A stretch of 64,000 nucleotides of DNA from Gammaproteobacteria bacterium (GCA_041496705.1 JBGQFD010000002.1:17938-81937), one strand, 5' to 3'. Positions 11,078 to 59,980 are shown, numbered from the stretch's first letter. Numbers and translations: made by a program. Notes: a model not told the origin generated them from the sequence alone.

Positions 11078-11103
11078 CCGGCAATGTTATCGCGTCGGCG
11101 TGC

Positions 11104-11742
11104 TCACGCAACCAGACCGTGTCGCATGGCGAACTTGACGAGTTCGACGGTGTCGTGAACCTTGAGCTTCTTCATGATGCGCGCCCGGTAGGTCTCGATC
11201 GTCTTGGGGGAAAGCGACAGCGCTTGGGCGATTGCGGCGTTGGTGCGGCCTTCGACCACGTGCTGCAGCACGTCGCGCTCGCGCAGGCTGAGGCTGTCCA
11301 GAGGGCTGAGGCTCGCGCCCTCGCGCAGATAGCCGTCGATGACCGTCTCGGTGATCCTGTGACTCAGGTAGCGCTTGCCCGCACGCAGTGCACGGATCGC
11401 CTCGACCACTTCATCCCCTGCAGACTCCTTTAGAACGTAGCCCTGCGCGCCTGCCTGCAGCGCCCGGTAGATATGTTCTGCGCTGAGGTACATCGAGAGG
11501 ATCAGCACGCGCGTGTCCGGGCACTTTTCGGTAATGCGGCGCGTCGCTTCGACGCCGTCGATCTCGGGCATGGCAATGTCCATGATGACGATGTCCGGCC
11601 GCAGGCGTTGCGCCTCGGTAACGGCGTCGCGACCGTTTCCCGCTACCCCGACCACCTTGAGATCCTGGGTGCCGTCGATGAGCGCCCGCAGGCCGTCCCG
11701 CACCACCGCGTGATCGTCTACGAGAAGGATCGTGACCGGCAC
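11104..11742 (-). CDS. NarL/LuxR-family response regulator
   Basis: Receiver domain (ILLVDDH...DIVIMDIAMPEIDG) plus LuxR HTH (LSLRERDVLQHVVEGRTNAAIAQALSLSPKTIETY). The GTG start at 11742 sits 1 nt after the kinase stop. Confidence 0.9.
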   Translation of the reverse strand: MPVTILLVDDHAVVRDGLRALIDGTQDLKVVGVAGNGRDAVTEAQRLRPDIVIMDIAMPEIDGVEATRRITEKCPDTRVLILSMYLSAEHIYRALQAGAQGYVLKESAGDEVVEAIRALRAGKRYLSHRITETVIDGYLREGASLSPLDSLSLRERDVLQHVVEGRTNAAIAQALSLSPKTIETYRARIMKKLKVHDTVELVKFAMRHGLVA

Positions 11743-11743
11743 T

Positions 11744-14713
11744 TCAGATCTCCGCTGCTGTGCGATATTCGACCAGCACCTCGACGCCCACATCGGGCTG
11801 CGCCCTCAGGACAAATTGCGCCCCGACGGCCTCGGCTCGCTCGCGCATGATCAGCAGCCCCCAGCCTGATCCTTCCGTGGATCCTACCCTGCTGGGGTCG
11901 AAGCCCACGCCGTTGTCTTGCACCGACAGAGTCGCCCGCCCGTCGCGGCGCCGGATCGCGATCTCGACCCGGTCGGCACTCGAGTGCTTGGCAATGTTGG
12001 TGAGCGCCTCTTGGGCGATTCTGAACATGGCCAGATCGACAGTCTTGGGGAAATCGGTGCGCGTCGAATCTCCGTCGAAAGCGACCTGGATCCCGGTTCT
12101 TCGCGAGAACCCGGCCGCGAGCGAGCGCAGCGCCGCCGGCAGTCCATACTCGTCGAGGGTGTGTGGACGCAGCTCCGTCATGAGGTTGCGTATCGCATCG
12201 ACCATGTCCCGGACCAGCATGCTGCAGTCATCCAGGCGCGCCGCCAGCTCCGGCTTTGTTTTTGCCGGCAGGCCGCCTGCAACGATGCTGAGATTCAGCC
12301 CGAGCCCGGTCAGATTCTGCCCGACGAGATCGTGCAGCTCGCGCGCGATGAGCCGGCGCTCCGACTCCTGGATCTCCACGAGACGACGCGAGGTCACCCT
12401 CAACCGGTCGGCGTAGTTGTGCAGATCTTCCTCGTCGCGCTTGCGCTCGGTGATGTCGTGGCTGATCTCCGAAAACCCGCGGAGCTTTCCATCGGCGTCC
12501 CGGAGCGGTGTGGCAATCACGTGAGCCCAGAAGCGCGACCCATCCTTGCGCACGCGCCAGCCCTCGCTCTCGTATCTGCCCTGCAGCGCGGCGAACTCGA
12601 GCTGGATGCCAGCGTCCCCGCGGATGGCGTGATCCGGAAGGAAGAAGCACGAGTAATGCCTGCCGATGATCTCCTCGGCGCGGTAACCCGCGATGCGCTC
12701 CGCCCCGAGGTTCCAGCTCGTCACGTGGCCTTTGGTGTCGAGCATGTAGATCGCGTAGTCGCGCACGTTTTCCACCATCATGCGAAAGCGCTCCTGGGAG
12801 ACCTTCGCCTGCTCTTCGGCGCGTTTCCGCTCCGTGATGTCTTGGCAGGTACCGAGCACCCGCACGGCTCGGCCCGACGCATCACGGTCCACGCGCGCTT
12901 TGCTATGAATCTCGCGAATCTCTCCGTCCGGCCGCACGATGCGAAACTGGCATTCGTAGGCGTTACCGTCGTGCAGGGCTTTGCGCGCCGCCCGTGCGGT
13001 GCGCTCTCGATCTTCCGGGTGGACGAACGGGTAGAAGCCGTAGAAAGCCGAGGGCAGGTGATCGCGAGCGACACCGAAGATCCTGGACAGCTGTTCCGAC
13101 CACTGGCGCGAATCGTCGAGCATGTCCCATTCCCAGCTGCCCAGATTGGCGAGCGCCTGCGCTTCCTGCAATTGCACTTCGCGCGCCTGCAGCGCCTCGT
13201 TCTTTTGCCGTTGCTCCGTGACGTCGCGCGAAACCTTGATGACGCTCACGACGTTGCCTTTCGAATCGGAGACCGAGCTGACCTGACTTTCCATGTAGCG
13301 AGCCTCCCCGCTCGGCAGCAGGAAGCGAAACTCGGCTCGCCGCGCCACTCCGTCGCGGACGGTATCGAAAAAAGTCTTGCGGACCCGCTCCCGGTCTTCC
13401 GGATGTACGCTCTGGAACGATTCAGTGCCCACCAGGGCCTTGTAGTTCTCGATCAATCCAGCGTACGCCGGATTGAGGTACACCAGCCGCCCCTCTGGGC
13501 TCAGCAGGGCGATCATGTCATATGCGTTCTCGGCGATCAGGCGGAAGCGCTCTTCGCTTTCCCGCAGATCTTTGGTGATTTGGTCGGCGATCTTTACTGC
13601 CCGGGTTCGGGAGGAAGATAGAGAATAGAGAATCCCAAACAGAAGGAAGCTCGAGAGCAGTCCGCCTGCCAACACGATAGACGGGAACAACCTATTGACC
13701 TGATCGACAAACACCTTCTCTGGGGCGCTGAAGTGTATCTCCCATTTCCGCCCGCCGACTTCGATTGGAAGGTTCTGACTGAGACCATAGCCGAGGCCAT
13801 CCTCCTGGGACTGTGTGTTCGAGTTCCGTATCAGCTGATTGCTGTCGAATAGCAATCTTTCGTTGTCGAGGCTCAGACCGCGCCGATCCGAAGCAGGTCC
13901 GGTATCGTAGAGTCGAAATCGCAAGAATTGCAGCGTTTGTTCATCGAGCGCGCCCCTCATCAGATTCTCAACGTTGAACCCCGCGCCAACCGAACCCACG
14001 TATGCGGCACGCCGATCTTCTTTGGTGACTAGGGGAACTCCCTGCCGGTAAACAGGTAATCGCATCGAAAGTCCAACAAATGCCTTCTCGCGCATCACTC
14101 GAATAAGCCGTCCGGATGCCGTCAGGCGCCCCGAATCTCGAGCGGATTGTAGAGCTTCCAATGCGGCAGCGTGATTACTAGCTGCAGCGTTGGCGGAAGA
14201 AATGTCGAGACCCAAGGCAAACTTATTGGCGGCCATGGGCTCAAGGTATACCAACACGTGATACTCGGATCGGTCGCCAGGGGGCTTGATTGTGAATTCG
14301 GGGTAGCCTCCAGGTTCGATGCTGGTGTCGCGACGCACCTCGTCCTCGAATCGCTTCTTGTCCTCAGCCCGAATTGGAATCGCGAAATTCACCACCTCAA
14401 AACCGGGAAATCGATTCTTTAGATCCAGGGATTCGACATACCTGTGAAATTGCGCTCGGCTAACCGTTCTTTGAGTGCCGAACAGCGCCCGCACACCGTG
14501 CAGAACACCCGCGTACGACTGAATGCGTGCCTCAATCACCCGCCTTGCTTCCGCAGCTTGGTGGTCGAATCGCTCCCTTGCGGCGCCTTCGATATTGCCC
14601 CGAATTACCGCATACAGGATCAGCGAGAATAGGCTGCCGGTCACCAATACCAACCCTGGCAAGACGACGCCTAGCCGCACACGAGAGGCAACGGAGTCAG
14701 AGGCCTCGGTCAT
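11744..14713 (-). CDS. Sensor histidine kinase: TM - CHASE - TM - 3x PAS - HisKA_3 - HATPase
   Basis: 989 aa with a CHASE-like periplasmic block (FHRYVESLDLKNRFPGFEVVNFA...YLEPMAANKFALGLD). Three PAS modules each end in ITERK-type motifs. The H-box is ARELHDLVGQNLTGL and a GxG ATPase end is present. Confidence 0.9.
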   Translation of the reverse strand: MTEASDSVASRVRLGVVLPGLVLVTGSLFSLILYAVIRGNIEGAARERFDHQAAEARRVIEARIQSYAGVLHGVRALFGTQRTVSRAQFHRYVESLDLKNRFPGFEVVNFAIPIRAEDKKRFEDEVRRDTSIEPGGYPEFTIKPPGDRSEYHVLVYLEPMAANKFALGLDISSANAAASNHAAALEALQSARDSGRLTASGRLIRVMREKAFVGLSMRLPVYRQGVPLVTKEDRRAAYVGSVGAGFNVENLMRGALDEQTLQFLRFRLYDTGPASDRRGLSLDNERLLFDSNQLIRNSNTQSQEDGLGYGLSQNLPIEVGGRKWEIHFSAPEKVFVDQVNRLFPSIVLAGGLLSSFLLFGILYSLSSSRTRAVKIADQITKDLRESEERFRLIAENAYDMIALLSPEGRLVYLNPAYAGLIENYKALVGTESFQSVHPEDRERVRKTFFDTVRDGVARRAEFRFLLPSGEARYMESQVSSVSDSKGNVVSVIKVSRDVTEQRQKNEALQAREVQLQEAQALANLGSWEWDMLDDSRQWSEQLSRIFGVARDHLPSAFYGFYPFVHPEDRERTARAARKALHDGNAYECQFRIVRPDGEIREIHSKARVDRDASGRAVRVLGTCQDITERKRAEEQAKVSQERFRMMVENVRDYAIYMLDTKGHVTSWNLGAERIAGYRAEEIIGRHYSCFFLPDHAIRGDAGIQLEFAALQGRYESEGWRVRKDGSRFWAHVIATPLRDADGKLRGFSEISHDITERKRDEEDLHNYADRLRVTSRRLVEIQESERRLIARELHDLVGQNLTGLGLNLSIVAGGLPAKTKPELAARLDDCSMLVRDMVDAIRNLMTELRPHTLDEYGLPAALRSLAAGFSRRTGIQVAFDGDSTRTDFPKTVDLAMFRIAQEALTNIAKHSSADRVEIAIRRRDGRATLSVQDNGVGFDPSRVGSTEGSGWGLLIMRERAEAVGAQFVLRAQPDVGVEVLVEYRTAAEI

Positions 14714-14850
14714 GATCCGTGCAATGAGCTCATCTGCTGGTCAAGGCAGTCAAGTGTACTGCAAGAGCATCAAACGGAATCAATGGCTCTGCGGAATACG
14801 TCCGCGAAGACTTCCCGAAATATCCATTTCGATTACGTACGACAGAAGAC

Positions 14851-14878
14851 AGAAAGACCGGATCGCTCCGGTCTTTCT
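14851..14878 (-). terminator. Rho-independent-type terminator hairpin downstream of the GRDP/WC-repeat gene
   Basis: Perfect 12-bp inverted repeat AGAAAGACCGGA-tcgc-TCCGGTCTTTCT, 33 nt after the stop at 14911. On the minus strand it is followed by GTCTTCTGTC. Confidence 0.6.
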
Positions 14879-14910
14879 TGAATGATGCCGCTACCACCAC
14901 CGGTTGCAGC

Positions 14911-15621
14911 TCAGATGCTGGCTGCCTTCGCCAGCTTCGGCCTTACCGAGAGACTAAGCTTGTTCACGGCAGGCCGGGCTGCAGCGCGCCAAGCAGCCCC
15001 TTCGGGTTCGCCGGCTGCCGCACACCAGGATGGGTCATCGGCTCTGGCGGCGGCAGCGCACCATGCCGCGCCTTCGGGCTGAGCCGCCGCCGCGCACCAA
15101 GCTGCGTCCTGAGCCTTAACGGCGGCTGCACACCAAGCGACTCCTTCAGGCTGAGCCGCTGCCGCGCACCATGCCGCATCCTTAGCGTTGATCGCGGCGG
15201 CGCACCACGCTTCGTCACCGTGCTTTGGCTCGCCGAACTCCCGTTCATACAATCGCTTCATGTTTTCGGAGGCTACTTTGAGATTCGCCCTATCTTCGGC
15301 GCCACGCATTCCAAAATACGGGAAATGGTGTAAAAAATATCCGAATACATTCTGGCAGTCGTCTGCGTACTTGAGCGTGTCCAAGATATGCCCATGCCAG
15401 AACTTGTCCACATCCTTGCTCGGCGCAATGGTCTCCTCAGGATGGGTTACTAAGAGAGCAAGAAACCGCTTGTACAACAGCTCTACACGGTCGACGTATT
15501 CACGAGACCAGCCCTGCCCCTCCTCTGCGTCCATGAGTTTCAGCTTGATGGGATCCAAATCTAGGGCTTGAATTCCAGCTACTACCTGCTCACCGGACCG
15601 GTTCATCAACTTTGTGTGCAT
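14911..15621 (-). CDS. GRDP/DUF1399-like His-rich domain fused to 7 x 12-aa W-C-A-A-A repeats (function unknown)
   Basis: 236-aa ORF with a GAGGAG RBS. Residues about 20-130 carry FWHGHILDT...FLHHFPYFGMRG. Residues 137-216 are exact-period repeats. It has its own terminator. There is no signal peptide or TM segment. Confidence 0.8.
   Translation of the reverse strand: MHTKLMNRSGEQVVAGIQALDLDPIKLKLMDAEEGQGWSREYVDRVELLYKRFLALLVTHPEETIAPSKDVDKFWHGHILDTLKYADDCQNVFGYFLHHFPYFGMRGAEDRANLKVASENMKRLYEREFGEPKHGDEAWCAAAINAKDAAWCAAAAQPEGVAWCAAAVKAQDAAWCAAAAQPEGAAWCAAAARADDPSWCAAAGEPEGAAWRAAARPAVNKLSLSVRPKLAKAASI
14974..15213 (-). repeat. In-frame imperfect tandem repeat: 36-nt unit, 72-nt super-unit, about 6.7 copies
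   Basis: GCN-TGG-TGC-GCN-GCN-GC cores recur every 36 nt. The encoded Trp residues fall at 139, 151, 163, 175, 187, 199 and 211. Confidence 0.85.
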
Positions 15622-16149
15622 GGTTCTTACTCCTCTGTCATTCGTTGGTAATCAATATGGAAACCGGCTTGAAAGAAGGTCGCTCTTCGAGCTGTTTCCG
15701 CGAGTCGTTTCGATCAAGAGAGTGATCGGGAATCAGGATTCGAAAAGCATTTCACCTCCCCCTGTCGAGGCGGTTCGAAAAGCTGCACTGAGGTATCGGG
15801 TGCGGGCGCTCATGCTCAAGAGCAGCACTGCCCATCGGTCTCGACTTCCCAACAGGCCATAGCCCACAGACTGCGGCGGGCGTGACTACGAACTTCATCC
15901 GACGATCTGTAACGGAACGTTCCCCAGCGCTCATTTGTCGGCGCGGTCGTCTGCCAAAGGCCCTTCGCACTAAGGGAATCTAATCAGGAGCAGCGGAAAG
16001 ATGCTGTCAGGCAAGACCGACAACCGATGTAGGGCTTTCCCTTACAGGGCCACGCAGAGTAAGCCGGCAGCCTTGCATGCGCCGCCGGCCCGGCTTGGCG
16101 CCGGGCAGGCATCGCCGCCCCTGCCGGCGGCGATAGCGCGACGGAGGTG

Positions 16150-16599
16150 TTACGAGCCGGCCACGATCACCAGCTCGTTCCGGACTGACGTGACGCCCGG
16201 GACATCGGCCGCCACCCGGGCGGCCTGTTCGCGATGCGCCCGCGAGTCCGCCGTTCCGTACAAGGTGACGACCCCGCTCGAGGAACCCGCGTCTATCGCG
16301 AGCAGCTTCAGCCGCGGGTCGGATCCCAGCGCGGACTTCACCCTGGCTGCCAAGGCCTTGTCCTCGTCGACCTTCGCTGCTTGCGCAGGCTTGGCCGCGG
16401 CGACCGGCCTTATCGGTTCGGTCTTTTCTTCCGTCGGCCTGGGCGCCAGCTGCACCTGGGATACCGGCCCGGTTTCCTTCTCGCTCTTCCACAGCGATGC
16501 GATCTGGTCGCACGCGACCAATCCGATTGCCAGTACACTTGCGCCCAAGGCGGGATAAACGCGATGTGCCTTCCTGCCAGATTTCATGATCTTCTCCAT
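16150..16599 (-). CDS. BON-domain lipoprotein
   Basis: Lipobox LAIGLVAC, a Pro/Ala/Lys-rich linker, and a C-terminal BON block (VKSALGSDPRLKLLAIDAGSSSGVVTLYGTADS...VPGVTSVRNEL). The start is either 16599 or 16587. Confidence 0.8.
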   Translation of the reverse strand: MEKIMKSGRKAHRVYPALGASVLAIGLVACDQIASLWKSEKETGPVSQVQLAPRPTEEKTEPIRPVAAAKPAQAAKVDEDKALAARVKSALGSDPRLKLLAIDAGSSSGVVTLYGTADSRAHREQAARVAADVPGVTSVRNELVIVAGS

Positions 16600-16754
16600 T
16601 TCCGGACAATACTGCCCTAGGACACGTCGCGATTCCGGTAGTTGCATCCCGCCATGCAAATTCCCGAGTGCTGTCGCTCCGCGGCGACGGGTCTCGCGCA
16701 GAAACTCTGCATGCGCGCCGATCGCGTTGATTCACGCATCCCATTGGTTCGCCC

Positions 16755-21508: not shown

Positions 21509-22708
21509 TCAGCCGATCTTGCAGGCCGCCATCGCCGCCGGGTCGTCGTCGAGCGCCTTGACCGCCACGCCCGAAACCTTGTTGTCGGTCCCGCTCACCT
21601 TGCGCAGATAGATGTCCTGGACCGGGTTGTGCGCCCGGGACAGGCGCCACTTGCCGCGCGGACTGTCCACGGTGGTCTTTTCCATGGCGGCAATGAGTTC
21701 CTTCTTCCTCGAAGCGTCGCCGTTGACCGCCTTGAGCCCGGCGGCGAGCAGCAGGCCGCTGTCGTAGCCCTGAACGGCGTATACGTCGGGCTGCAACTTG
21801 TAGGTCTTGGCGTAGGCGAGCCGGAATTCATTGTCGCGCTTGGTGTTCAGATTGTCGGCGTAGTGAAGCGCCGTCTCTACGCCCTGCGCGGAGCTGCCCA
21901 CCGCCTCCAGCACCCCGTCGGTGAGAAAACCCGTGCCGGTGAGCGGGATCTTGTCCTTCAGGCCCGCCTGCGCGTAGTCCCTCAAGAATTTCGCCGCGCC
22001 GCCGCCGGCAAAAAAAGCGAACACGGCGTCGGGCTTGGCCGCCGCAATCTCGGTCAGCAGGGGCTGAAACTCCACGTTCGGGAACGGCAGCCAGATCTCC
22101 TTCGCGATCTTGCCGGCGCCCTTGCCAAACCCGTCCTTGAAGCCCTTCACCATCTCTTCACCGGCGGCGTAGCGCCAGGTGATCGTCACGACGCTCTTGA
22201 CGTTCTTGCGCTGCGCGAGCGCCACGCCCATCCCGTAGCCGTTCTGCCAGTTGGAGAACGAAGTGCGGAAGATGTTAGGCGCGCACAGGGCCCCGGTCGC
22301 GACGCCAACGCCGGCGTTGGGGATGATGTGCAGGGTGCCGGATTCCCGTGTCACGCGGATCATGGCCGCGGCGACCCCCGAATGCACCGTGCCGAGCACC
22401 ACGTCGACCTTGTCGCGGTTCACCAGGCGATTGACGTTATCGGTCGCCTTGGCCGGCTCGGATTCGTCGTCCACTTTGAAAAACTCGACTTCCCGCCCGC
22501 CGAACTTTCCGCCGGCCTCCTGGAGCGCGAGGCGGAACCCGTTCTCGATGGCGACGCCGAGCGGCGCGAACGTACCGGTGTAGGGCAGCATCAGCCCGAT
22601 CTTGATTTTCGCACCCTGCGCGAACGCCAGTGCGGGAACAACCAACTCCGCTCCCGCGACTGCGGCGCCGGCCGCGGCCCCCTTGAGAAACCTGCGACGC
22701 TTGATCAT
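21509..22708 (-). CDS. Liv/amide-type periplasmic substrate-binding protein with a twin-arginine signal
   Basis: 399 aa with an N-terminal MIKRRRFLKGAAAGAAVAGA...ALAFA. The fold is type I PBP (IKIGLMLPYTGTFA...). Confidence 0.9.
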   Translation of the reverse strand: MIKRRRFLKGAAAGAAVAGAELVVPALAFAQGAKIKIGLMLPYTGTFAPLGVAIENGFRLALQEAGGKFGGREVEFFKVDDESEPAKATDNVNRLVNRDKVDVVLGTVHSGVAAAMIRVTRESGTLHIIPNAGVGVATGALCAPNIFRTSFSNWQNGYGMGVALAQRKNVKSVVTITWRYAAGEEMVKGFKDGFGKGAGKIAKEIWLPFPNVEFQPLLTEIAAAKPDAVFAFFAGGGAAKFLRDYAQAGLKDKIPLTGTGFLTDGVLEAVGSSAQGVETALHYADNLNTKRDNEFRLAYAKTYKLQPDVYAVQGYDSGLLLAAGLKAVNGDASRKKELIAAMEKTTVDSPRGKWRLSRAHNPVQDIYLRKVSGTDNKVSGVAVKALDDDPAAMAACKIG

Positions 22709-22985
22709 CGTTCCCTCCTTGTTTAGAGCGTTGCGTTCATTCTACGGAAATAAGCTCCCATCAGCGAGCCCGCAGAATCCGAGTTCAGCCCTCACTGCGC
22801 CTCTCCGACAGGATCGCTCATCCTACAAGGACAGGCCCCTGATAGGACAGCGACGTTTCGATCGCCAGCCCCACAGAGAGCACGCGCTCGTCCTCGCCGG
22901 AAAACCCCACGACCATGAACCCGACCGGAGCCTCGCGGGCAGGCTGGATCGGCAGGGTGATGTAGTCGGCCGCAAGGACGGACTT
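22684..22985. repeat. Direct repeat copy A: binding-protein 5' end + intergenic + amidase 3' remnant
   Basis: 22693-22720 is identical to 26620-26647. 22761-22960 matches 26652-26851 with 3 mismatches in 200 nt. 22959-22985 equals 27051-27077. Confidence 0.9.
22818..22985 (-). pseudogene. Remnant of the amidase 3' end (copy of 26709-26851 joined to 27051-27077, internal about 199-nt deletion)
   Basis: Encodes ...PVGFMVVGFSGEDERVLSVGLAIETSLSYQGPVLVG* like the intact amidase C-terminus. There is no start codon, and it diverges abruptly at 22986. Confidence 0.75.
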
Positions 22986-23230
22986 ATTTATCACTAGACT
23001 CGCTCCGATCGCCCCCGCTCGGGCGTGCGCAGGGGCGCGGAACTAAGCATAAGACCGATTGCGCACCGCACAGGACAGCTTCGAGCACCGGATTGCCGCG
23101 CCCCGGCGAGCCATCCCGGCTTCGGCAGTGAATTGATTCTGGTATCCGTAGGCAGCTGAGGGATGTGGGCGAGCTGGCATGCACAGCGTGGTACGCCGTG
23201 CATGTCCGCTTATCTCCCAATGCGACAACC

Positions 23231-23265
23231 GCGACGCAGCACGGCTGCGCGCCGTGCCGCGTCGC
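23231..23265 (-). terminator. Possible terminator hairpin after the tannase-family gene
   Basis: Inverted repeat GCGACGC-AGCACGGC...GCCGTGC-GCGTCGC directly downstream of the stop at 23272. There is no clear U-tract. Confidence 0.4.
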
Positions 23266-23271
23266 GTTTCC

Positions 23272-25212
23272 TCAGTCAGCGCACACGTAGCTCGAAGCGA
23301 CGTTAATGTCGCCGCTGACCCACTCTGCCTTCTTGGGATAGAGACAGATAGGTCTCGACTTGGCCACCGGGAATGTCGGCGTGACGGCGGATGAAATGTC
23401 GATCCGCGTCGGAGCGATACCCTTTTCCACCCAATTGGTAAGCACGTCGTAAAGCTGCTGCGTACCGGCTGCCGCGGTACCTGGCAGCGGGGGATTGGCG
23501 GTCGGATTGGTCGTCCCGTTGCCCAAGCCGTGCGTCATTCCGGGCACCAGGAAGAAGCGATAGAACTTCTGGACCGCTCTCAAGCCGCCCATCTCCCTCA
23601 CCACCCGGTGGTAGTAGTTGATCGATCCCTGGGGCATGATCAGGATATCAGCCAGGCCATGGTAGAGCAGCATCTTCCCACCCGCGTCCCTGAACCGCCT
23701 GAGGTCGGGATTGTCGGTGTTGATGTCGGCAAAGCTCGGCTGCAACAACACCCCCTCATCATAGGCGGCGGCCAACTGGGCGTAAGACAGGTTCATCCAG
23801 CCATTGGCGCCGTTGCCCGTTGGATTGATGAACGAGGGCGTCGCCAGGGTCGGATTCTGCATTTCCAGCGCTACCATGTCGGTCGAGATAGGGAATGGAC
23901 CGAAAGGGAACGGAGCGAAAGAACTACCCGCCAGAAGCCCCGCGTTCGTACCCCGGGTGAGCCCGTACCAGAGCTGATGGCCGTTGATAGTCAGCGACCA
24001 GCTATTGTCCACATCCGGCGAGGGAGCAGTGCCGTTTCTGGTCTGCCCATACCAGATCTTGTTCATGGCCTCGGCTTGCACCGACGTCACGCAGTTCGCG
24101 GTCGTATTGTTTCCCCCGCTCGCCGTGCACAGCACGTTCGCGTCGTGCGCCGGGCCGTAGCGGCACTCCGACGGGTCCGGGATGTAGCCGAGATGCTGGC
24201 CATTCACCAGGTCGCAGGCATTGATTGCGGCGTTGCCGAGCAGCGTGAGCTGGCCCGAGGTGAGCGGAACGCCACCCAGGTCGCGCTGGTACACGATCTG
24301 CGGATACAGCTCGTTGGTGATGAATCGCGTCCAGTTGATGGCCGGCGCCCCCGCGAGGATCCCGTCGAAGTCGGTCGGATGCTCCTGCGCTTCCTTGTGA
24401 CCCTGCCGGCCACCGGTTGAGAAGCCGTCCCAATAGGCGTATTTCGCATGCCTGCCGTAATAGGCTTTGGTGAGCGCCTTCGTCTTCACGGCCATCTCAT
24501 GGATGCCGCGCTGCGCGAAGTCGTTCCACAACACCCTGTTGATCGTGCCATCCGGATTCATGGCGAACGATCCGCCGTTCGCGGCGTTGGTGTGGCCCGT
24601 GTCCGCGGATGCCGAGACAGCACCTTCGAGCGTCGCGGCGATCATAGGAGTGGATGTCGGGCCGCCCGCGCCTCCGGCCCCGGCCAGCAGCGTCACTGAC
24701 GATTGCACGCCACCCGCCCAGCCGCCGCCGCCGATTACGTGAATGCGATGGTTCCAGTTCGCCGGCGAGGGTAACCACACCTCGATGCCGATACCTGCAG
24801 AGGTCGACGGTGCGCCCGCCGGACCCGGATTTCCCGGTCCCACCAGCAGCTTCACGACGCATACATCGTTTGCCGCCGTCGGCGGCGGAGGCGTTGCCGG
24901 CGTGCCTGAAAGCGCGAGTGCGTCCCCCTTCTTGAAAGCCTTGACAAGCAGCACGGTGGTGAGCGAGTCGGGCTGGAACTCGGTCTTCATCGTGTCGTCA
25001 CATACCAGCAGCTTATGCTTATGTTTGTGGCTGTCTTTGTCCCCGTCTCTGTCCCCATCGCTCTGCGCCTTACCGTCGTCGTACTTCATGTCATCAGCAA
25101 GGGCGTGAACCGGAACACAGGCAAAGGCGGCCGCCGCGAGCATTGCCAGAATCTTCTTCGCTGTGGTGCTCCGCTCAGATAAAAGACTCAACTGCTTGAT
25201 CCCAGCATCCAT
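23272..25212 (-). CDS. Tannase/feruloyl esterase family protein, secreted
   Basis: Start set at the ATG at 25212, with an AAGGAG RBS 6 nt upstream. A signal peptide ...VPVHALA is followed by a D/K/H-rich linker. WLPSPANWNHRIHVIGGGGWAG...WDGFSTGGRQGHKEAQ is the tannase-family nucleophile context. Confidence 0.85.
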   Translation of the reverse strand: MDAGIKQLSLLSERSTTAKKILAMLAAAAFACVPVHALADDMKYDDGKAQSDGDRDGDKDSHKHKHKLLVCDDTMKTEFQPDSLTTVLLVKAFKKGDALALSGTPATPPPPTAANDVCVVKLLVGPGNPGPAGAPSTSAGIGIEVWLPSPANWNHRIHVIGGGGWAGGVQSSVTLLAGAGGAGGPTSTPMIAATLEGAVSASADTGHTNAANGGSFAMNPDGTINRVLWNDFAQRGIHEMAVKTKALTKAYYGRHAKYAYWDGFSTGGRQGHKEAQEHPTDFDGILAGAPAINWTRFITNELYPQIVYQRDLGGVPLTSGQLTLLGNAAINACDLVNGQHLGYIPDPSECRYGPAHDANVLCTASGGNNTTANCVTSVQAEAMNKIWYGQTRNGTAPSPDVDNSWSLTINGHQLWYGLTRGTNAGLLAGSSFAPFPFGPFPISTDMVALEMQNPTLATPSFINPTGNGANGWMNLSYAQLAAAYDEGVLLQPSFADINTDNPDLRRFRDAGGKMLLYHGLADILIMPQGSINYYHRVVREMGGLRAVQKFYRFFLVPGMTHGLGNGTTNPTANPPLPGTAAAGTQQLYDVLTNWVEKGIAPTRIDISSAVTPTFPVAKSRPICLYPKKAEWVSGDINVASSYVCAD

Positions 25213-25432
25213 ACACTTCTCCTTTTCGTTGTATTGCCGCTGCATGATGTGGCCTCCGACGGCTCCATGTTTGTTATGCGTCCGTGCGGCCGAGAACTTC
25301 CTGCCGTCGTGTCCCCAGCGTATGATAAGCAGGGAACGCATAGGTAGATGGCGTCGCGGCAAAGATTGGCGATAAGTGAAATCCACGCATGTCGATTTCG
25401 GTTATGGCCAGCGGAGACGGGAGGTCGCCAAT

Positions 25433-26359
25433 ATGGATCGCCAGCCCCCAGAACCTTCGGCTTTCAGTCATTTTCTCACGACAAACTATCCGGCAGAACC
25501 CGATTACGTCGTGCACGGCCCGGGTGGCAACGTCATCGCTGCCAAGTGGCATCGCCCGGCCTCGCGCAACGCGATGCAAGTGGTATTGGCGCAAAACACG
25601 CTGATGTATCACGTCGGGGGGTCGACTTCGGTCGCAAAAACCGTGGACGGTCGTTGCATCGGCACGCGCTCGCAACACCGATCGGTGACCTTCAGTCCGA
25701 GAGACGAGCCCAGTGAATGGGTCCGAGGCGGCGTCTGCGAGGTGATGCACGTCTACATCGCGCCGTCACTCATACAACGATACGCCGACGAGAATCTCGC
25801 CTGCTCGGCCCCGCCGGAGATCGATCCCATATTCGCCGTCCGCGATCCCTGGCTGCAGAGCTATTTCATGATGCTGCAGAGCGAATTCGAAACATTTGGT
25901 GGAAGCAGCAAGGACCCCGAGGCGCTGCTCCTGACGCAGTCGACGGAGCTGTTGATACGACATCTGGTCTGCTGGCATTCGAACGTGTCGCAGAATGGCC
26001 GAAGACGGGTGGTGACGGCGGCCGCGCCACATCCCCTGGCGCCGCGGCACCTGGCGCGAGTCCTCGCCTACATCGACGCCGACATCGGCCGCGACATCGC
26101 GCTTGCCGATCTCGCGCAGCTTGTCGGCGTTTCCAGAGATCATTTCATTCGAAGCTTTCGCGCCGCTACTCAGCGAACGCCTTATGCTTATCTGGTCGAG
26201 CGCCGCCTCGCCCATGCCGTCGACGCGCTGAGGCACAGCACGATGTCAGTCGAGCGAATCGCGCGCGATGCGGGCTTCAAGAGCGCACCCGGATTCTCCA
26301 ACGCATTCAAAAAACACTATGGAATGTCCCCAAGCATGTTCAGAGCCCGGTCACACTGA
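25433..26359 (+). CDS. AraC family transcriptional regulator
   Basis: GGGAGG RBS before the ATG at 25433. C-terminal double HTH (LADLAQLVGVSRDHFIRSF...IARDAGFKSAPGFSNAFKKHYGMSP). Divergent from the tannase gene. Confidence 0.85.
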   Translation: MDRQPPEPSAFSHFLTTNYPAEPDYVVHGPGGNVIAAKWHRPASRNAMQVVLAQNTLMYHVGGSTSVAKTVDGRCIGTRSQHRSVTFSPRDEPSEWVRGGVCEVMHVYIAPSLIQRYADENLACSAPPEIDPIFAVRDPWLQSYFMMLQSEFETFGGSSKDPEALLLTQSTELLIRHLVCWHSNVSQNGRRRVVTAAAPHPLAPRHLARVLAYIDADIGRDIALADLAQLVGVSRDHFIRSFRAATQRTPYAYLVERRLAHAVDALRHSTMSVERIARDAGFKSAPGFSNAFKKHYGMSPSMFRARSH

Positions 26360-26527
26360 CGGCGCTCGATTTAGCTATGTCCTTTGCCCGAGGGGGCGTT
26401 GCGTTGTAGTCGCGGGGGATCTTGACGCTCGGCAGGCTGACCGAAATGGTCGGCGATGCTTCAGGACGGCACGGCGGCCCTTCCCTGTTCGCGCTGACCG
26501 GCATTGTTCGCTTCCGGGCGCCGAGCG

Positions 26528-26635
26528 TCAAGAAGCTCCGAAACTCGCTTGCCCCGGTGCTCTCTCCAGACGACGAAACAGGAGTGCACAAACGATCGCC
26601 AGACCGGGTAGCTGAAACTTGCGACGCTTGATCAT
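26528..26635 (-). pseudogene. Truncated 5' fragment of a Liv-type binding-protein gene (35 codons then stop)
   Basis: MIKRRKF... shares the first 7 codons and the upstream RBS region with the intact gene at 22708. It continues as a signal-peptide-like LPGLAIVCALLF and stops after 35 aa. Confidence 0.55.
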
Positions 26636-26851
26636 CGTTCCCTCCTTCCTATCAGCGAGCCCGCAGAATCCGAGTTCAGCCCTCACTACGCCTCTCCGAC
26701 AGGATCGCTCATCCTACAAGGACAGGCCCCTGATAGGACAGCGACGTTTCGATCGCCAGCCCCACAGAGAGCACGCGCTCGTCCTCGCCGGAAAACCCCA
26801 CGACCATGAGCCCGACCGGAGCCTCGCGGGCGGGCTGGATCGGCAGGGTGA
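26612..26851. repeat. Direct repeat copy B (partner of 22684-22985)
   Basis: See copy A. This copy is contiguous with the intact amidase gene. Confidence 0.9.
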
Positions 26852-28085
26852 GCGCGCAGCCGTCCAGGAAGTTGATCAGGCTGGTATTGCGTAGCATGTT
26901 GCCATTCGCGAGGCGAAACGTGTCCGCGTCCTTGTCCAGTTGCGCGATGGGCGGCGCGATGCGCGGCACGGTGGGCATGAGGAGCGCGTCGACCGCGTAG
27001 TTCTCCCTGGAAAAGCTGTGCGCGAGGCGCGCCCGGGTCGCCAGCAACTCGATGTAGTCGGCCGCAAGGACGGACTTCCCCTTCAGGATCCGTTCGAACA
27101 CCCTCGGGTCGAACTCCCGCTCTCGCGCGAGGCGGTCGCGGTGAACCGTGTAGGCTTCCGGCGGCAAGATCCCCCCGAGGCGGTTGGCCTTCGCCGCCTC
27201 GTCGAATTCCGGCACCCGGATCTCCACGATCTTTGCGCCGCTTCGCGAGAGGCGCTGCATCGCGGACTGGAAGGCCTCGGCGACCTCGGTGTCGAGATCC
27301 TCGAGCACGTAATTCTTCGGGACACCCAGCCGCAGGCCGGGAAGCGCAGCCGCCTGAAGCGGGCGCGGCAGTTCGCCGGCGAGGACCTGGAATACGGTTG
27401 CGCAGCAACCGACCGTGGGCCCGAGAGGCCCGACCGAATCCAGCGTGGTCGACAGCGGAAACACCCCTTCGAGCGGAACGCGCGTTCGAGTCGGTTTGAA
27501 TCCCGCGATCCCGCACAGAGCTGCCGGGATGCGCACCGAGCCGCCGGTATCGGTGCCGAGCGCGAGCGCCGCCATCCCGTCGGTGACCGACACCGCGGCC
27601 CCGGAGGACGACCCGCCCGGAATTCTGCGAGTCTTCCGATCGTACGCATTCGCCGGCGTGCCGTAGTGCGGATTGATGCCGATTCCGGAAAAGGCGAACT
27701 CGGTCATGTTGCTGCGTCCGATGATGATGGCGCCCGCGGCGCGCAGCCGCGCGACTGCCGCCGCGTCCGCGCTCGCCGGCGGCGCCTCGCGCAGGATCTT
27801 CGATCCGGCCGTGGTCACGTCGCCGGAGATATCGAAAAGATCCTTGATCGAAACCGGCAATCCGGCGAGCGGAGAAGGCACGATGCTTTCTCTTCGCAGC
27901 CGGTCCGACGTATCGGCTGCAAGTCGCGCGTCCTGCGCGTGCACCTTGGTGAAGACGCGCACGCCCTCGCCGCCCGCGTCGGCGATCCGCGCGAGCGCCG
28001 CCTCGACGAGCTTGCGGCTGGTGGTTTTCCCCTCGGAAAGATCGCGCGCCAGTGCCGCGACCGGGCGGACAATCGCTTCAGCCAC
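26709..28085 (-). CDS. Amidase (amidase-signature family)
   Basis: 458 aa with a GTG start. AS motif IPGGSSSGAAVSVTDGMAALALGTDTGGSVRIPAALCG. Confidence 0.9.
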   Translation of the reverse strand: MAEAIVRPVAALARDLSEGKTTSRKLVEAALARIADAGGEGVRVFTKVHAQDARLAADTSDRLRRESIVPSPLAGLPVSIKDLFDISGDVTTAGSKILREAPPASADAAAVARLRAAGAIIIGRSNMTEFAFSGIGINPHYGTPANAYDRKTRRIPGGSSSGAAVSVTDGMAALALGTDTGGSVRIPAALCGIAGFKPTRTRVPLEGVFPLSTTLDSVGPLGPTVGCCATVFQVLAGELPRPLQAAALPGLRLGVPKNYVLEDLDTEVAEAFQSAMQRLSRSGAKIVEIRVPEFDEAAKANRLGGILPPEAYTVHRDRLAREREFDPRVFERILKGKSVLAADYIELLATRARLAHSFSRENYAVDALLMPTVPRIAPPIAQLDKDADTFRLANGNMLRNTSLINFLDGCALTLPIQPAREAPVGLMVVGFSGEDERVLSVGLAIETSLSYQGPVLVG

Positions 28086-28096
28086 GTCGATGCGCG

Positions 28097-28486
28097 CTAG
28101 GGCTTGGCGCTCTCATCGTAATAGTGCAACTCGAGCAGGAGACACCCCTTCTCCGACCTGAACGGGCCATGCGGCGTGCCCGGCGGGCGGCACGCGTAGG
28201 TGTTCGGACCGAACTTCGTGCCGCCTTTCCCGTTCTTGTCGCTGCCGACGATCAGGTCGCCGGAGACGAGGTAGACCTCCTCCCAGTATTCGTGTACGAA
28301 CGGCTCGGTCGTGTACACGCCCGGTGCGAAACGCAGGTGCCGAGTGCGGAAGCCGCGCCGGTTCTTCTCGTCGAGGAAACCCGACAGGATCTGCTGTTCG
28401 ATCCCGTCCGGATAGTCGGGAAGCGTCTCCCATCCAGCGTCCAGGTCAATCCGGTGGAACTCCTTGTGTTCCTTGTGAATCGTCAT
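28097..28486 (-). CDS. Cupin domain protein
   Basis: 129 aa. The cupin-like core is HEYWEEVYLVSGDL...PPGTPHGPF. It is tightly packed between the DUF2848 and amidase genes. Confidence 0.8.
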   Translation of the reverse strand: MTIHKEHKEFHRIDLDAGWETLPDYPDGIEQQILSGFLDEKNRRGFRTRHLRFAPGVYTTEPFVHEYWEEVYLVSGDLIVGSDKNGKGGTKFGPNTYACRPPGTPHGPFRSEKGCLLLELHYYDESAKP

Positions 28487-28495: not shown

Positions 28496-29164
28496 TCAAT
28501 CTGCGATCGCAAGACAACGGGTCCAATAGCCATGCGTCAGGCTGCGATTCTTCAGCGCGTCGTGCAATTCAATTTCGAACCGCTCGCCCCCGCCGATTTC
28601 GCCGTGAACCGCGAGCGTGCCGCAGAACATTGCGCTCCCGACCGGGAGATCCCCGCCCGACTGCGCGAGACGCGCAAGCAGATCGCGCGGTGCCAGCATC
28701 CTGCTCACCGGGCCCTCCTGGTACAGGACGCGTTTGCCCTTGCGCGTCACATGGGAGCGCAGCACCAGAGCGTCCCAGCGATCTTCCACGTCGTCCAGTC
28801 GCCACAACGCCCGCCCCACGGGCTTGGGGCACATCTGCTTGGACACGGTGACGCCGTACGCTTCCACCTTCCGGTCGGTATGATCTGATCCCACGCCCAC
28901 GTAAAGGCCGTCGGGTGCGGAGATGAGCACGAACTCGACTTCACCGCTGGAATCCCCGCCCACGACCTCCAGATCCGTTTCCGTGGTGAGCAGGTTGGCC
29001 CCCAACCGATAGAAGCACGGCACGCTTCGCGGGCGCTTTACCCCGATCGCTGCGAGCTCCGCGATATGCTGTTCCACCGAGGCCGGATCGCGTCCGGTCC
29101 ATCCGGCGATGATAAGGGAGGAGATGCCGATATTTCGGGCCGCGTCTGCGACGGTGAATTCCAT
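28496..29164 (-). CDS. DUF2848 domain protein
   Basis: Start at MEFTV, with an AGGAAGGCAGGAA RBS region. SLIIAGWTGRD...GSDHTDRKVEAYGV...MFCGTL is typical of DUF2848. Confidence 0.75.
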   Translation of the reverse strand: MEFTVADAARNIGISSLIIAGWTGRDPASVEQHIAELAAIGVKRPRSVPCFYRLGANLLTTETDLEVVGGDSSGEVEFVLISAPDGLYVGVGSDHTDRKVEAYGVTVSKQMCPKPVGRALWRLDDVEDRWDALVLRSHVTRKGKRVLYQEGPVSRMLAPRDLLARLAQSGGDLPVGSAMFCGTLAVHGEIGGGERFEIELHDALKNRSLTHGYWTRCLAIAD

Positions 29165-29269
29165 TTCCTGCCTTCCTGAATCGTTCAGGTTTCGCTTGCA
29201 CGGCAACTCTAACCGAGGGCCGAGCAATGTCAACTGCGCATCGCGTTCGAACCCTGCACCGTCTGAGCG

Positions 29270-30169
29270 TCAGTCCCGCGCCTTGCCACCCAGTTCCGCG
29301 GCCAGGAAGTCCACGAAGGCTTTGCGGGTGACTGAGGCGAAGCGCCCGGGCGGAAAGACCGCATACAGTCCGGAAGGTTCGGGCCGGCGGTCCTCCAGTA
29401 TCACGCGCAGCCGTCGGCGCTTCAGGTAGGGCTCGAACATGAGATCGGGGCCGACGACGATGCCCTGGCCCGCCAGCAGCGCGTGGGTGAGCAGCACCGC
29501 GCTGTTCGTACCCAGATTTCCGGAGAGCAGTACCGGTTTGCCTCGCGTGCCTTCGCTGCCAAACGGCCAGCGTGCACGCGACTGGAACTCCGAGTAGCTC
29601 AGACAGTTGTGGTTTCTGAGTTCTTTGGGTGTGCGAGGGCAGCCGTGGCGCTTCAGGTAGGCGGGCGAAGCCACCGCCTGGAAGCGCACGTCGCGCAGTT
29701 TGCGGCACATGAGGCTGGAGTCGTTGAGGTTGCCGATTCTGAGTGCGAGGTCAAAGCCCTCTTCGATGGGGTCCACCTGCAGGCTGGTGACGCGCACATC
29801 GAGCTGCACGTCGGGATACTTTTCCTGGAAACGCGAGATGAGCCGCCCTACCGGTGAGACCACCAGGGTCTGCGGCAGGGTGACGCGCAGCAGGCCCCGC
29901 GCCCGTTCCGGCGCCGAAGTCGCGAACGCGGCTGCGCGCTCCGCTACGTGCTCCAGGTCCTTGCAATGCACATGGAAGCGCTCGCCCGCCTCGGTGAGGG
30001 ACAAGCTGTGGGTGGAGCGGTAGAGCAGCTGCTGGCCGAGCTCGCTCTCAAGTGCCGAGACGTGCCGGCTCACCACCGACTTGGACAGTTGCAGGCGAGC
30101 CGCCGCCTTGGTGAAGCTGCCGGTCTTGACGACCTCGGCAAAGCTCGACATGAGTTCGAGCAGGTTCAT
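29270..30169 (-). CDS. LysR family transcriptional regulator
   Basis: MNLLELMSSFAEVVKTGSFTKAAARLQLSKSVVSRHVSALE is the wHTH. Divergent from the CMD-family operon. Confidence 0.9.
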   Translation of the reverse strand: MNLLELMSSFAEVVKTGSFTKAAARLQLSKSVVSRHVSALESELGQQLLYRSTHSLSLTEAGERFHVHCKDLEHVAERAAAFATSAPERARGLLRVTLPQTLVVSPVGRLISRFQEKYPDVQLDVRVTSLQVDPIEEGFDLALRIGNLNDSSLMCRKLRDVRFQAVASPAYLKRHGCPRTPKELRNHNCLSYSEFQSRARWPFGSEGTRGKPVLLSGNLGTNSAVLLTHALLAGQGIVVGPDLMFEPYLKRRRLRVILEDRRPEPSGLYAVFPPGRFASVTRKAFVDFLAAELGGKARD

Positions 30170-30277
30170 GGGGACAGATCCGGTAATGAAGATTTTGCAA
30201 CAACGAGTTCCTTTGACGCAGGATACCAAGTTTTCACGCAACGCTCATAATGTCCCCGACTGACACAGGAGGGTGGC

Positions 30278-58003: not shown

Positions 58004-58138
58004 GTGACCCTCCTCCTTTCTTGGGGCTGCACGGCATTGTTCGCTCCCACGCGTGGAGCGTCAAGGCGCCCGATATCGAGGCCTCGGGCATAAGCGTGGA
58101 CGGGGAAACCCAACCCTCCTCGCCGCTGGCATTCTTCC

Positions 58139-58948
58139 TCAATCCGGTCCGGCGCGGACCAATCTGCGGTACTGCGCCATGTGTCGAATGGCCTGGCGCG
58201 GCCGATGAAGTTGCTCGCAGAGAAGCGCCAGGTTGTAGTGGCAGTCCGCGAGCAGCGGATCGCGGTGCAGGGCCCGCTCGTACGCTTCAAGCGCCTCGCT
58301 CGGCCGGCCGAGATCTTCAAGGAGCACGCCGAGGTTGAACAGCAGCAGCGGGTCGCTGCCGCACGCCGCGATGGCCTGGCGGTAGACCCCTTCGGCCTCG
58401 GCGAAACGCCGGCCTTCGTGGAGCAGCCGGCCCAGATTGAGCTGTGCGTCCAGGTTTTCGGGCTCCGCCGCGATCGCCCGCCGATAGGCCTCGCGAGCTG
58501 CGGCCGGATCCCTGCTTTCCAGCCCGAGGCCTTGCGCGAACCAGTCAGGCGGCGCTGGAACATGGCGCTCCATCACTCTCAGGTCGCCCTCGGCCGGATT
58601 CCCGCCGAACGCGAGCAGGTACTGCCCGGAATCGGCCTGCCAGCGGCTGGCCCCTTCCTTCACCACGACACGATCGCCTTCGGCGCTAATTGCCAGCCCA
58701 GACAGCGGCATGGTCCCTGGGAGATGCCGCCGCAGTTCCTTGAGCGAGCGCGCGATGCGTTTCGGCGGCACCTTGGCCACCGCCAGCGCCTGGGCGGTGC
58801 GCAGAACGATCAGATCCTGGAACGAGAAGAGGTAGGTTCTGCGCGGACCGCGCGCCGGCGTGACGAACCCGGCCTTAACCAGGCTATGGATCGTGCTGCG
58901 CGGCAGGCCGAGCAGCCGCTCGACGTCTTGCACGCCGTACTGGTGCAT
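58139..58948 (-). CDS. MerR-type HTH protein fused to TPR repeats
   Basis: The N-terminus YGVQDVERLLGLPRSTIHSLVKAGF is a MerR-like HTH. The C-terminus has about 4 TPR units (EAYRRAIAAEPENLDAQLNLGRLL...). It lies 23 nt after the Ku stop. Confidence 0.8.
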   Translation of the reverse strand: MHQYGVQDVERLLGLPRSTIHSLVKAGFVTPARGPRRTYLFSFQDLIVLRTAQALAVAKVPPKRIARSLKELRRHLPGTMPLSGLAISAEGDRVVVKEGASRWQADSGQYLLAFGGNPAEGDLRVMERHVPAPPDWFAQGLGLESRDPAAAREAYRRAIAAEPENLDAQLNLGRLLHEGRRFAEAEGVYRQAIAACGSDPLLLFNLGVLLEDLGRPSEALEAYERALHRDPLLADCHYNLALLCEQLHRPRQAIRHMAQYRRLVRAGPD

Positions 58949-58971
58949 GGCGGGCGGGACGGGCCTGCGGG

Positions 58972-59847: not shown

Positions 59848-59980
59848 GCGAGCCTCCAATAGTCGGTCATTCCCAGGGCGGCGAGGGATCCGCTCATCGA
59901 TCTGCCCACGCAGAAGCGGATACTTCGCACTCCAGCTTCGAAATCCCGGTTAAGCCCTTGTTGTCAAAGGGGGGTCGATT

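Follow-up and report, generated by a model that had tools for sequence, protein, structure and literature searches.

A tannase and AraC gene pair inserted beside a solo IS91-family end into a duplicated amidase/binding-protein junction of a gammaproteobacterium

In a 64,000-nt stretch of gammaproteobacterial DNA (the window, whose positions are used throughout unless a contig is named), a secreted tannase gene and a divergent regulator lie between two copies of the junction of an amidase gene and a binding-protein gene, which raises the question of how the pair came to be there and how the junction came to be doubled. Both neighbours are intact and on the minus strand. The gene at 21509..22708 encodes a periplasmic binding protein with an RRRFLK Tat-like signal (Pfam Peripla_BP_6, E = 3e-72) and is the first of a Liv-type ABC transporter operon, while the amidase gene at 26709..28085 (Pfam Amidase, E = 1e-85) is the last of a DUF2848-cupin-amidase set. 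The order DUF2848-cupin-amidase-binding protein is kept in eight relatives, and in three same-genus genomes (G011, G019, G014) binding-protein orthologues of 85–95% amino acid identity directly follow the amidase gene. Empty sites at this locus were found in these three and in G001 and G010, with both flanks of the insert syntenic with G010 over >22 kb. Since the amidase gene is directly followed by the binding-protein gene in other species of the genus, the tannase and AraC block (22986-26613) is an insertion into the ancestral amidase/binding-protein junction, of which ~0.5 kb is duplicated. This bears out the first-pass annotation, which had assigned the genes involved (Peripla_BP_6 binding protein, Tannase, AraC, Amidase, cupin and DUF2848, all recovered by Pfam), placed an insertion at this junction and expected relatives without it to have the amidase gene followed directly by the binding-protein gene. 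In some relatives a different binding-protein paralogue (about 30% amino acid identity) follows the amidase gene, and amidase-region alleles in G011 stand at 81.5% and at 96–100% identity, a sign of allele swapping among relatives.

The duplicated junction consists of three matching blocks on the minus strand, a result on which repeat search, sequence inspection and whole-genome BLAST agree. The ribosome-binding site and first 22 nt of the binding-protein gene (22687..22720) match 26614-26647 at 33/34 positions. A dead amidase 3' tail with its 60-nt downstream spacer (22756..22960) matches 26647-26851 at 201/205 positions, with mismatches at 22759, 22797, 22919 and 22941, and a 27-nt amidase piece (22959..22985) is identical to 27051-27077 (27/27). 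A 205-nt match at 98% identity rules out chance, confirming that the repeat is real, and its coordinates and counts had been given correctly to within a few bases at first pass. The right copy (26614..27077, minus strand) comprises 22 nt of the binding-protein 5' end with its ribosome-binding site, then the spacer and the 3'-terminal 369 nt of the intact amidase gene, including 199 nt (26852-27050) that are missing from the left copy, where a 2-nt GA overlap marks the deletion joint. Conversely, the left copy has 35 extra nt (22721..22755, minus strand) that include CCGTAGAATGA, a sequence similar to the amidase 3' end of relatives; because the right copy of a diverged relative, L050, retains this segment, the indel is a secondary loss from the right copy (26647/26648). 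In sister MAGs the dead tail is annotated merely as a 58-aa hypothetical ORF, and a promoter scan of the dead left copy gave no match. Whole-genome BLAST detected no third copy of the junction in the 3.6-Mb genome.

Comparison with L050 indicates that the insertion event is old. Every junction is the same in that relative, including the 199-nt deletion, which does not bear out the earlier description of a "recombination scar" in the sense of a fresh event. The insert is 93–96% identical between the two genomes and the amidase tail only 79%, the corresponding values at third codon positions being 87–90% and 62%. The two junction copies differ at 1/95 sites in the present genome and at 0/95 in L050 but at 20–21/95 between genomes, so that gene conversion keeps the copies alike within each lineage; this concerted evolution is observed against one relative, L050, on a 3.9-kb contig that ends inside the repeat. 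Exact-protein look-ups returned only insert-bearing contigs, with neither a circle nor an empty-site variant among them.

The first-pass annotation had reported no visible IS ends, yet the insert begins with one. Its left edge is, to the exact base, the inner end of a 168-nt sequence, element A (22986..23153, plus strand). Element A corresponds to the final ~160 nt of an IS91-family insertion sequence, on the oriIS side, and stands alone, without a transposase gene. The inner end, abutted by the dead amidase tail through its 27-nt piece, reads ATTTATCACTAGACTCGCTCC, and homology of >25 fetched copies begins at 22986-22988; the outer end reads ...GAATTGATTCTGGTATCC, then GTAG, with which the cargo starts at 23154. 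More than 50 solo homologues, sharp at both ends and with the same two boundaries, occur in 19 of the 31 genomes of the genus. In full elements, element A lies directly downstream of a transposase with Zn_Tnp_IS91 and Y2_Tnp domains (G012:C336, 4e-18 and 3e-15, respectively; a second full copy is in G021:C50). More specifically, homology among full copies begins ~90 nt or further upstream of tnpA and ends with ...CCTATCC ~250 nt downstream of it, and element A is the last ~162 nt of this stretch, with two different ends and without terminal inverted repeats. The gene order conserved across the IS91 family identifies its outer end as the probable origin. The tetranucleotide following the outer ...TATCC has T at position 2 in 18/18 other copies, mostly as GT or CT, in agreement with the target rule of IS91, which has a target tetranucleotide next to its origin end, no target duplication and no inverted repeats (PMC13181058).

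In the present genome the element is a fossil: the 86%-complete assembly yielded no intact transposase and only a broken fragment (C25:10404-10655), and tblastn with the transposase against 22600-27200 gave no match. An imperfect stem (CGCTCC...GGAGCG, inner CCC...GGG) is predicted and conserved on 22 element A copies, with compensatory change in only two pairs, and the fold of the window copy is no more stable than that of shuffled sequences (z = -0.7 to -1.4). An IS200/IS605 or REP/RAYT identity was considered because the flanks are TTAC-like and contig C25 has a Y1 transposase, and was ruled out given that the Y1 gene shares nothing with element A, which is of the IS91 family; clustered copies were likewise dropped as integron attC sites because they have no core sites. 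No empty site was found for a solo copy, the flanks of that in G021:C18 not being conserved in other genomes. Exact-pattern scans of genome contigs and of metagenome contigs for the junction of element A with the amidase gene gave no match, and no donor locus with element A beside the tannase gene was found, homology in L051 stopping 12–17 nt before the element.

The cargo next to element A comprises two genes and two remnants. The gene of the secreted tannase/feruloyl-esterase family (23272..25245, minus strand, alternative start 25211; Pfam Tannase, E = 5e-83) has its closest homologues, 94%, 85% and 83% identical, in various contexts. Divergent from it is the AraC-family regulator (25433..26359, plus strand; Pfam HTH_18/HTH_AraC), whose orthologues in G007-G009 (88–90% nucleotide identity) adjoin a different tannase paralogue. 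Beyond lies fragment B (26401..26543, minus strand), with a promoter (TTGACG-17-AACAAT, a promoter scan match), a near-palindrome and ~25 broken codons of a benzoate-CoA-ligase-like gene; compared with CoA-ligase 5' regions, the fragment is 82–84% identical to those in other species, against 76% to the genome's own gene at 56411-58066. Fragment B is a pseudogene piece brought in with the cargo, and its reading as a mobile repeat ("element B") was rejected in view of its origin in a conserved CoA-ligase gene, whose promoter and 5' end it represents. An Rfam search of 22500-27200 gave no match, so that neither A nor B is a known RNA. A 70-nt segment (26544..26613) completes the insert; it has no match elsewhere in the genome, is 94% identical in L050 and makes up most of a 35-codon stub ORF noticed earlier (MIKRRKF... 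and then a stop), which translation recovers on the minus strand from 26635 to 26531. The insert had also been called visibly AT-richer, which holds only mildly: it has 61.6% G+C against 65–66% in the flanks, with GC3 of 0.71–0.78 in its genes compared to 0.83–0.88 in the binding-protein and amidase genes.

The same layout recurs at a second, independent locus in another species. In G023:C23, a 162-nt direct repeat (8892-9053 and 11206-11367, 99.4% identical) brackets element A and ~2 kb holding methyltransferase genes; the first repeat copy abuts the element's inner end, and its outer end is followed by CTCA. The corresponding empty site is contiguous in a third species (G009:C435). Among about 45 element A loci examined, only these two, the window and G023, have the duplication-flanked layout.

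We hypothesise, at roughly even odds, that 22986-26613 is cargo captured beside an IS91-family end that entered the junction in the manner of ISCR1, via a circle and homologous recombination. The circle, the order of the steps and the recombination are what we infer from the layout, as follows. The tannase gene, the AraC gene, the dead CoA-ligase promoter piece and the 70-nt segment (26544-26613) would have come to lie beside element A, at which an HUH/Y2 transposase of the family, acting in trans on this non-autonomous end, may have set off aberrant (one-ended) rolling-circle events producing a circular molecule. Such a circle would have contained element A, the cargo and ~0.5 kb of the amidase/binding-protein junction, through which RecA-type homologous recombination would have inserted it at the resident copy of that junction. 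The outcome would be junction copy, element A, cargo, junction copy, with the amidase and binding-protein genes both intact, which is the topology that the first-pass annotation had rightly recognised as that of a single-crossover integration of a circle with a junction fragment. Later, the left copy would have lost 199 nt and the right copy 35 nt, gene conversion keeping the remaining blocks nearly identical within each lineage. Against this route, element A must earlier have lain directly beside amidase position 27077, and what follows that position on its right (CCCC in the window, GCAT at the equivalent point in G023) is not a canonical IS91-type target. The duplicated segments do not end distally in canonical termination tetranucleotides either (GAAA..., CGGC...), although CTTG and CTCA lie 3–4 nt further in, and several steps are required at each of two separate loci.

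A tentative and rather unlikely further reading is that the miniature IS91 end acts together with the cargo and with a short stretch of homology to the target as a "homing" cassette. By recombination into this one operon junction the cassette would spread between species, and it would remain excisable through the gene conversion that homogenises the repeats on either side. Homing would account for the insert being 93–96% identical between this genome and L050 while the amidase tail is only 79% identical.

An alternative, possible although we consider it improbable, is insertion in one step with duplication in situ and neither a circle nor homologous recombination. The incoming DNA, linear or in the course of replication, would begin exactly at the inner end of element A, for example through a replication fork breaking at a transposase nick, and could have been copied or ligated in by two template switches of the microhomology-mediated, break-induced type or by end joining, with a return switch ~0.5 kb behind the point of departure duplicating the junction. 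This would be more economical (one event per locus rather than five), agrees with the non-canonical boundaries of the duplicated segments at both loci, and could draw on the Ku and LigD-like protein encoded in the genome. It would also yield near-identical copies by construction, although their likeness is uninformative given that gene conversion occurs anyway. Microhomology, however, shows no direct sign at the junctions except for the GA at the later deletion, template-switch insertions of such size are undocumented for this group of bacteria, and there is no natural reason for the piece to begin at the inner (termination-side) end of element A and run out through the origin end.

The position of element A also bears on a more doubtful explanation, that the locus took up the cargo from foreign DNA, which also held a fragment of the junction, through a generic Campbell-type or homology-facilitated integration unrelated to the insertion sequence, element A being a passenger or a later arrival. 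The topology fits, the element, with the dead tail on one side and GTAG on the other, looks like a canonical simple insertion, and the alleles of the G011 amidase region are consistent with such exchange; yet element A lies exactly at the boundary of repeat and cargo at two independent loci, for which the chance is about one in several hundred per locus.

The alternative offered by the first-pass annotation, in which two paralogous amidase-transporter loci recombined unequally, is close to refuted. The stub continues with a signal-peptide-like sequence and, as mentioned above, a different binding-protein paralogue follows the amidase gene in some relatives, but whole-genome BLAST found no second amidase or junction copy, which leaves this reading without support, and both flanks belong to a single native locus. 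The stub itself was rejected as a paralogous binding-protein 5' end, its continuation matching nothing in L084 and no binding-protein gene in the relatives examined. Finally, a mis-joined or collapsed repeat is barely credible, even for a 168-contig MAG with short Logan contigs breaking within the repeats, since eight independent assemblies, obtained from different samples by different pipelines (this one, three other NCBI MAGs and four contigs of JGI metagenomes), carry the same arrangement and the same five copy-specific differences without gaps, the diverged L050 has the same junctions, and the longest exact stretch common to the copies is only 120 nt.

To our knowledge, gene capture by ISCR and IS91 elements has mostly been inferred from antibiotic-resistance plasmids, and its steps have never been directly observed. 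In the present genus, two separate chromosomal loci serve as examples, and for each of them a sister species has the corresponding site empty. With a parent insertion sequence, of which two transposase genes seem intact, and dozens of solo pieces of its origin end, the genus provides a natural data set and testable substrates for the pickup of neighbouring genes. At the window locus the insertion parts the amidase gene set from its presumed importer, an uncoupling already suggested at first pass, and a secreted tannase/feruloyl esterase, with a regulator, now lies upstream of that presumed importer on the same strand. The near-identical repeats beside a dead gene tail are in addition a clear small case of concerted evolution.

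By comparison with known systems, the locus is instructive but does not represent a new kind of arrangement. Element A resembles the miniature sequences of IS801, right-end pieces of 229–679 nt that are known to move (PMC3189936), in sharing the right (origin) terminus of its parent, without a transposase, and in having a fixed left end and many contexts, and its parent has the zinc-finger and Y2 HUH transposase of IS91/IS1294 one-ended transposition elements (PMC3189936, PMC13181058). Its sequence matches none of the described insertion sequences compared; in contrast to the IS801 miniatures its mobility is putative, and solo copies far outnumber their mostly broken parents. As in Campbell-type integration, direct repeats of a homologous segment flank the insert and the neighbouring genes are intact, but the repeats are homogenised and carry later deletions, unlike the reciprocal donor/host hybrids of a fresh event. 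By analogy, the layout as a whole matches the gene-capture arrangement of ISCR1 "complex integrons", in which 3'CS, ISCR1 (oriIS), a variable region and a partial 3'CS copy follow one another and are explained by aberrant rolling-circle circles rescued by homologous recombination (PMC7707992; PMC6218425). As in those complex class 1 integrons, a host segment is followed by an IS91-family element whose origin end points towards the cargo, by captured genes and by a second host-segment copy, the boundary of origin end and cargo being precise and the second copy starting at an arbitrary point; in the window, the first copy (22687-22985) directly adjoins element A at its inner end and the second runs from 26614. 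In contrast to ISCR1 integrons, the repeats enclose a 168-nt end piece in place of a complete insertion sequence with its transposase gene, an ordinary operon junction of the chromosome serves as host segment rather than a conserved integron segment (with a different host segment at the second locus), the cargo is catabolic (tannase and AraC) instead of conferring antibiotic resistance, and the locus is an old and decayed one in the chromosome of an uncultured environmental bacterium.

Apart from the AraC gene, every gene of the region is encoded on the minus strand. In transcription order, a LysR regulator (29270–30241) is followed by genes for a DUF2848 protein (28496–29233), a cupin (28097–28486) and an amidase (26709–28085), a 35-codon stub (26635 to 26531), the AraC gene (25433–26359, plus strand), the tannase gene (25245 to 23272) and, past a dead amidase tail, a binding-protein gene (22708 to 21509) with two permease and two ATPase genes after it. 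The direct repeats of the amidase/binding-protein junction that the first-pass annotation had described are borne out by repeat search and raw sequence, with 22687–22720 matching 26614–26647 (33/34 nt), 22756–22960 matching 26647–26851 (201/205) and 22959–22985 matching 27051–27077 (27/27). The left copy alone has the 35 nt at 22721–22755 and lacks the equivalent of 26852–27050 (199 nt). This 35-nt segment, with a counterpart in the relative L050 (positions 150–200), includes TTTCCGTAGAATGA, similar to the last amidase codons and stop of relatives (CTCGTAGAATGA/TAA); an earlier replacement of the amidase gene may have left it behind as the remnant of a former amidase 3' end. An ORF at 22818–22994 (minus strand), annotated as a 58-aa 'hypothetical protein' in sister MAGs, is a chimera, starting inside element A (the insert's left end, below) and running on across the dead amidase tail; it is almost certainly no real gene.

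Eight other species of the genus have a binding-protein gene directly after the DUF2848, cupin and amidase genes. The empty site predicted earlier, with the amidase directly before the binding-protein gene, is thus found in relatives, including three genomes (G011, G019, G014) in which the next gene is a binding-protein orthologue (85–95% amino acid identity) 28–110 nt past the amidase stop. Synteny between the window and a further genome, G010, extends >22 kb into the left flank and, on the right, across the amidase set. Taken together, this gene order and flank synteny indicate that the insert (22986–26613), together with the duplication of the junction, is derived. The insert had been called visibly AT-richer; its G+C content is indeed lower (61.6% versus 65–66% in the flanks, with GC3 of 0.71–0.78 versus 0.83–0.88), but only slightly.

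An insertion sequence end, overlooked in the first-pass annotation, which reported none, forms the left edge of the insert. This segment, element A (22986–23153), matches dozens of sites in the genus, with homology always starting at 22986–22988, and a census found >50 copies, sharp at both ends, in 19 of the 31 genomes. At G012:C336, G021:C50 and several decayed loci it lies directly 3' of a gene for a 439-aa Zn_Tnp_IS91 plus Y2_Tnp protein, and comparison of full copies shows the insertion sequence terminating exactly at the element A end (...GAATTGAYTNNCCTATCC). Its position 3' of the transposase and the end shared with full copies identify element A as the terminal ~162 nt, at the origin (oriIS) end, of a rolling-circle element of the IS91 family. 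The tetranucleotide past the outer end has T at position 2 in 18/18 copies, mostly as GTNN or CTNN (GTAG in the window), conforming to the IS91 target rule of T at this position (PMC13181058). IS801 has short right-end pieces whose left end is constant, and these have been caught transposing (PMC3189936). Close to the inner end an imperfect stem is conserved, with hardly any covariation, and shuffled sequence folds just as well as the window copy. In the source genome (G000) the transposase survives only as a broken fragment beside another element A copy on contig C25. Several element A copies (L037, L040, L042 and G000:C25:10920–10990 among the sites concerned) end in 2–4 tandem reiterations of the origin end's last 7–25 nt (as in CCTATCC CTATCC ... 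CTTATCC), and in three copies the first 17–19 nt of the inner end are duplicated in tandem. The genome's sole gene for a Y1 (IS200/RAYT-like) transposase (G000:C25:32841–33179, ~200 aa) was considered as a relative of element A and proved unrelated.

From left to right, the insert consists of element A (inner end on the dead amidase tail, outer end toward the cargo), a 118-nt spacer, the tannase gene, an AT-rich divergent promoter region of 187 nt, the AraC gene, fragment B and 70 nt with no match elsewhere in the genome. Fragment B (26401–26543) comprises a sigma-70-like promoter and a near-palindrome, along with ~25 broken codons from a benzoate-CoA-ligase-like gene. It is 82–84% identical to the CoA-ligase 5' region of other species and only 76% to the genome's own copy (56411–58066), an indication that the cargo is of foreign origin. 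By itself, the tannase-AraC core (23166–26401) recurs at 88–90% nucleotide identity in an unrelated context (L051), and in L084 a tannase (83% amino acid identity) adjoins AraC, binding-protein and CoA-ligase genes. The AraC gene is an orthologue (88–90% nucleotide identity) of one in G007–G009 that is divergent from another tannase paralogue (33% amino acid identity; L017–L019), whose copy in the source genome (G000:C133:1400–3518) is partnered by a LysR regulator; at the divergent promoter, enzymes and their regulators have changed partners. The sole DNA-level tannase orthologue among genus representatives (G017:C219, L020; 73% identity) lies just 3' of an M24 peptidase gene, with no AraC gene there; in the window the same peptidase gene is the neighbour of the transporter operon at its far end. 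Elsewhere in the window, ~5.5 kb (58080–63588) carrying a MerR-TPR gene, a Ku gene and a large LigD-like ORF separates the CoA-ligase gene from the gene that is next to it (~30 nt) in G007, G008 and G022, and has the look of an end-joining repair block acquired by insertion. G010:C71 has no equivalent, at the syntenic position, of the stretch at 11050–16750 (CHASE kinase and Cys-repeat gene).

Self-comparison of ~45 element A loci, searching for repeat-bracketed copies, revealed a second locus with this layout. On G023:C23, element A and ~2 kb with methyltransferase genes lie between direct repeats of 162 nt (99.4% identical); the first repeat copy stops 0–5 nt short of the inner end, CTCA follows the outer end, and an intact gene has the second copy as its 5' portion. 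A search of the joined flanks against the genus found an uninterrupted counterpart on G009:C435, contiguous and 82% identical. One topology at two unrelated loci ties duplication plus insertion to the IS end.

For ISCR1 in complex class 1 integrons, the accepted model has two aberrant rolling-circle events producing a circle that then recombines homologously with a resident segment (PMC7707992; PMC6218425). We consider ISCR1-type capture the best explanation here, at roughly even odds: two such events at the IS end would yield a circle, which would then integrate by homologous recombination with the resident host segment. The Campbell-type integration proposed earlier thus persists in a specific form, with the circle tied to an IS end that had been missed. 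One weak point is the many steps required at each of two loci. Another is that the bases right of the duplicated segment are CCCC here and GCAT in G023, neither a canonical target, so that an earlier element A insertion at that point is hard to explain; the far ends of the duplicated segments are likewise non-canonical as termination sites. The main rival, considerably less likely, is a single-step insertion, through replication or end joining, that duplicated its target in place. Integration bearing no relation to the IS is improbable, given the shared topology of the two loci. Recombination between paralogous loci is very improbable; the suggested BLASTN search for a third junction copy found none in the 3.6-Mb, 168-contig, 86%-complete genome. 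An assembly artefact as the source of the repeats is scarcely credible: exact-protein look-ups recovered the arrangement in three further NCBI MAGs (99.86% identical over 11–17 kb, gapless), on four JGI metagenome contigs and on several short Logan contigs that break within the repeats, with five copy-specific differences identical in all contigs long enough to show them, and no empty site among contigs encoding an identical amidase or binding protein.

Evidence on age comes from L050 (JGI contig, 3,945 nt), which spans the equivalent of 22858–26826 with every junction present, including that of element A with the amidase piece and that of the 199-nt deletion. Its right copy retains the 35-nt segment, so the loss from the right copy in G000 came later. 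Window and L050 are 93–97% identical over the insert (third codon positions: tannase 87%, AraC 90%) versus 79% over the amidase tail (third positions 62%) and 62%, with indels, over the spacer 3' of the amidase stop. Over the 95 nt common to all four copies, copy and copy differ at 1 position in G000 and 0 in L050, versus 20–21 between the two genomes; these 95 nt are exactly where the two ends of L050 overlap, inside the repeat, and there an assembler could have collapsed small copy differences but not 20%. By these counts the dead copy has tracked the live one through gene conversion, whatever built the structure. The insert/flank contrast would reflect either a cassette moved between diverged lineages or a swapped amidase allele. 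The closest species genome, G011, has two versions of the DUF2848-cupin-amidase region (G011:C148 and G011:C345; L022, L021), one 81.5% identical to the window and joined at the empty site to a transporter operon 90% identical, the other 96% identical (100% over 419 nt). Either allele swapping or a mixed MAG could account for the pair; from alleles at 81.5% and 96–100% identity we take swapping to occur in the region.

We infer that the insertion severed the amidase set from the importer that comes next in relatives. Because tannase gene, element A, dead tail and transporter operon are co-directional, transcription of the importer may now come from the tannase promoter; a promoter scan of the dead junction copy found no promoter-like site. 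The insert is the decayed relic of an ISCR-like capture, built on a miniature origin end of the IS91 family and of a kind already known: its order of host segment, IS (termination side to origin end), cargo and host segment again is that of ISCR1 complex class 1 integrons.
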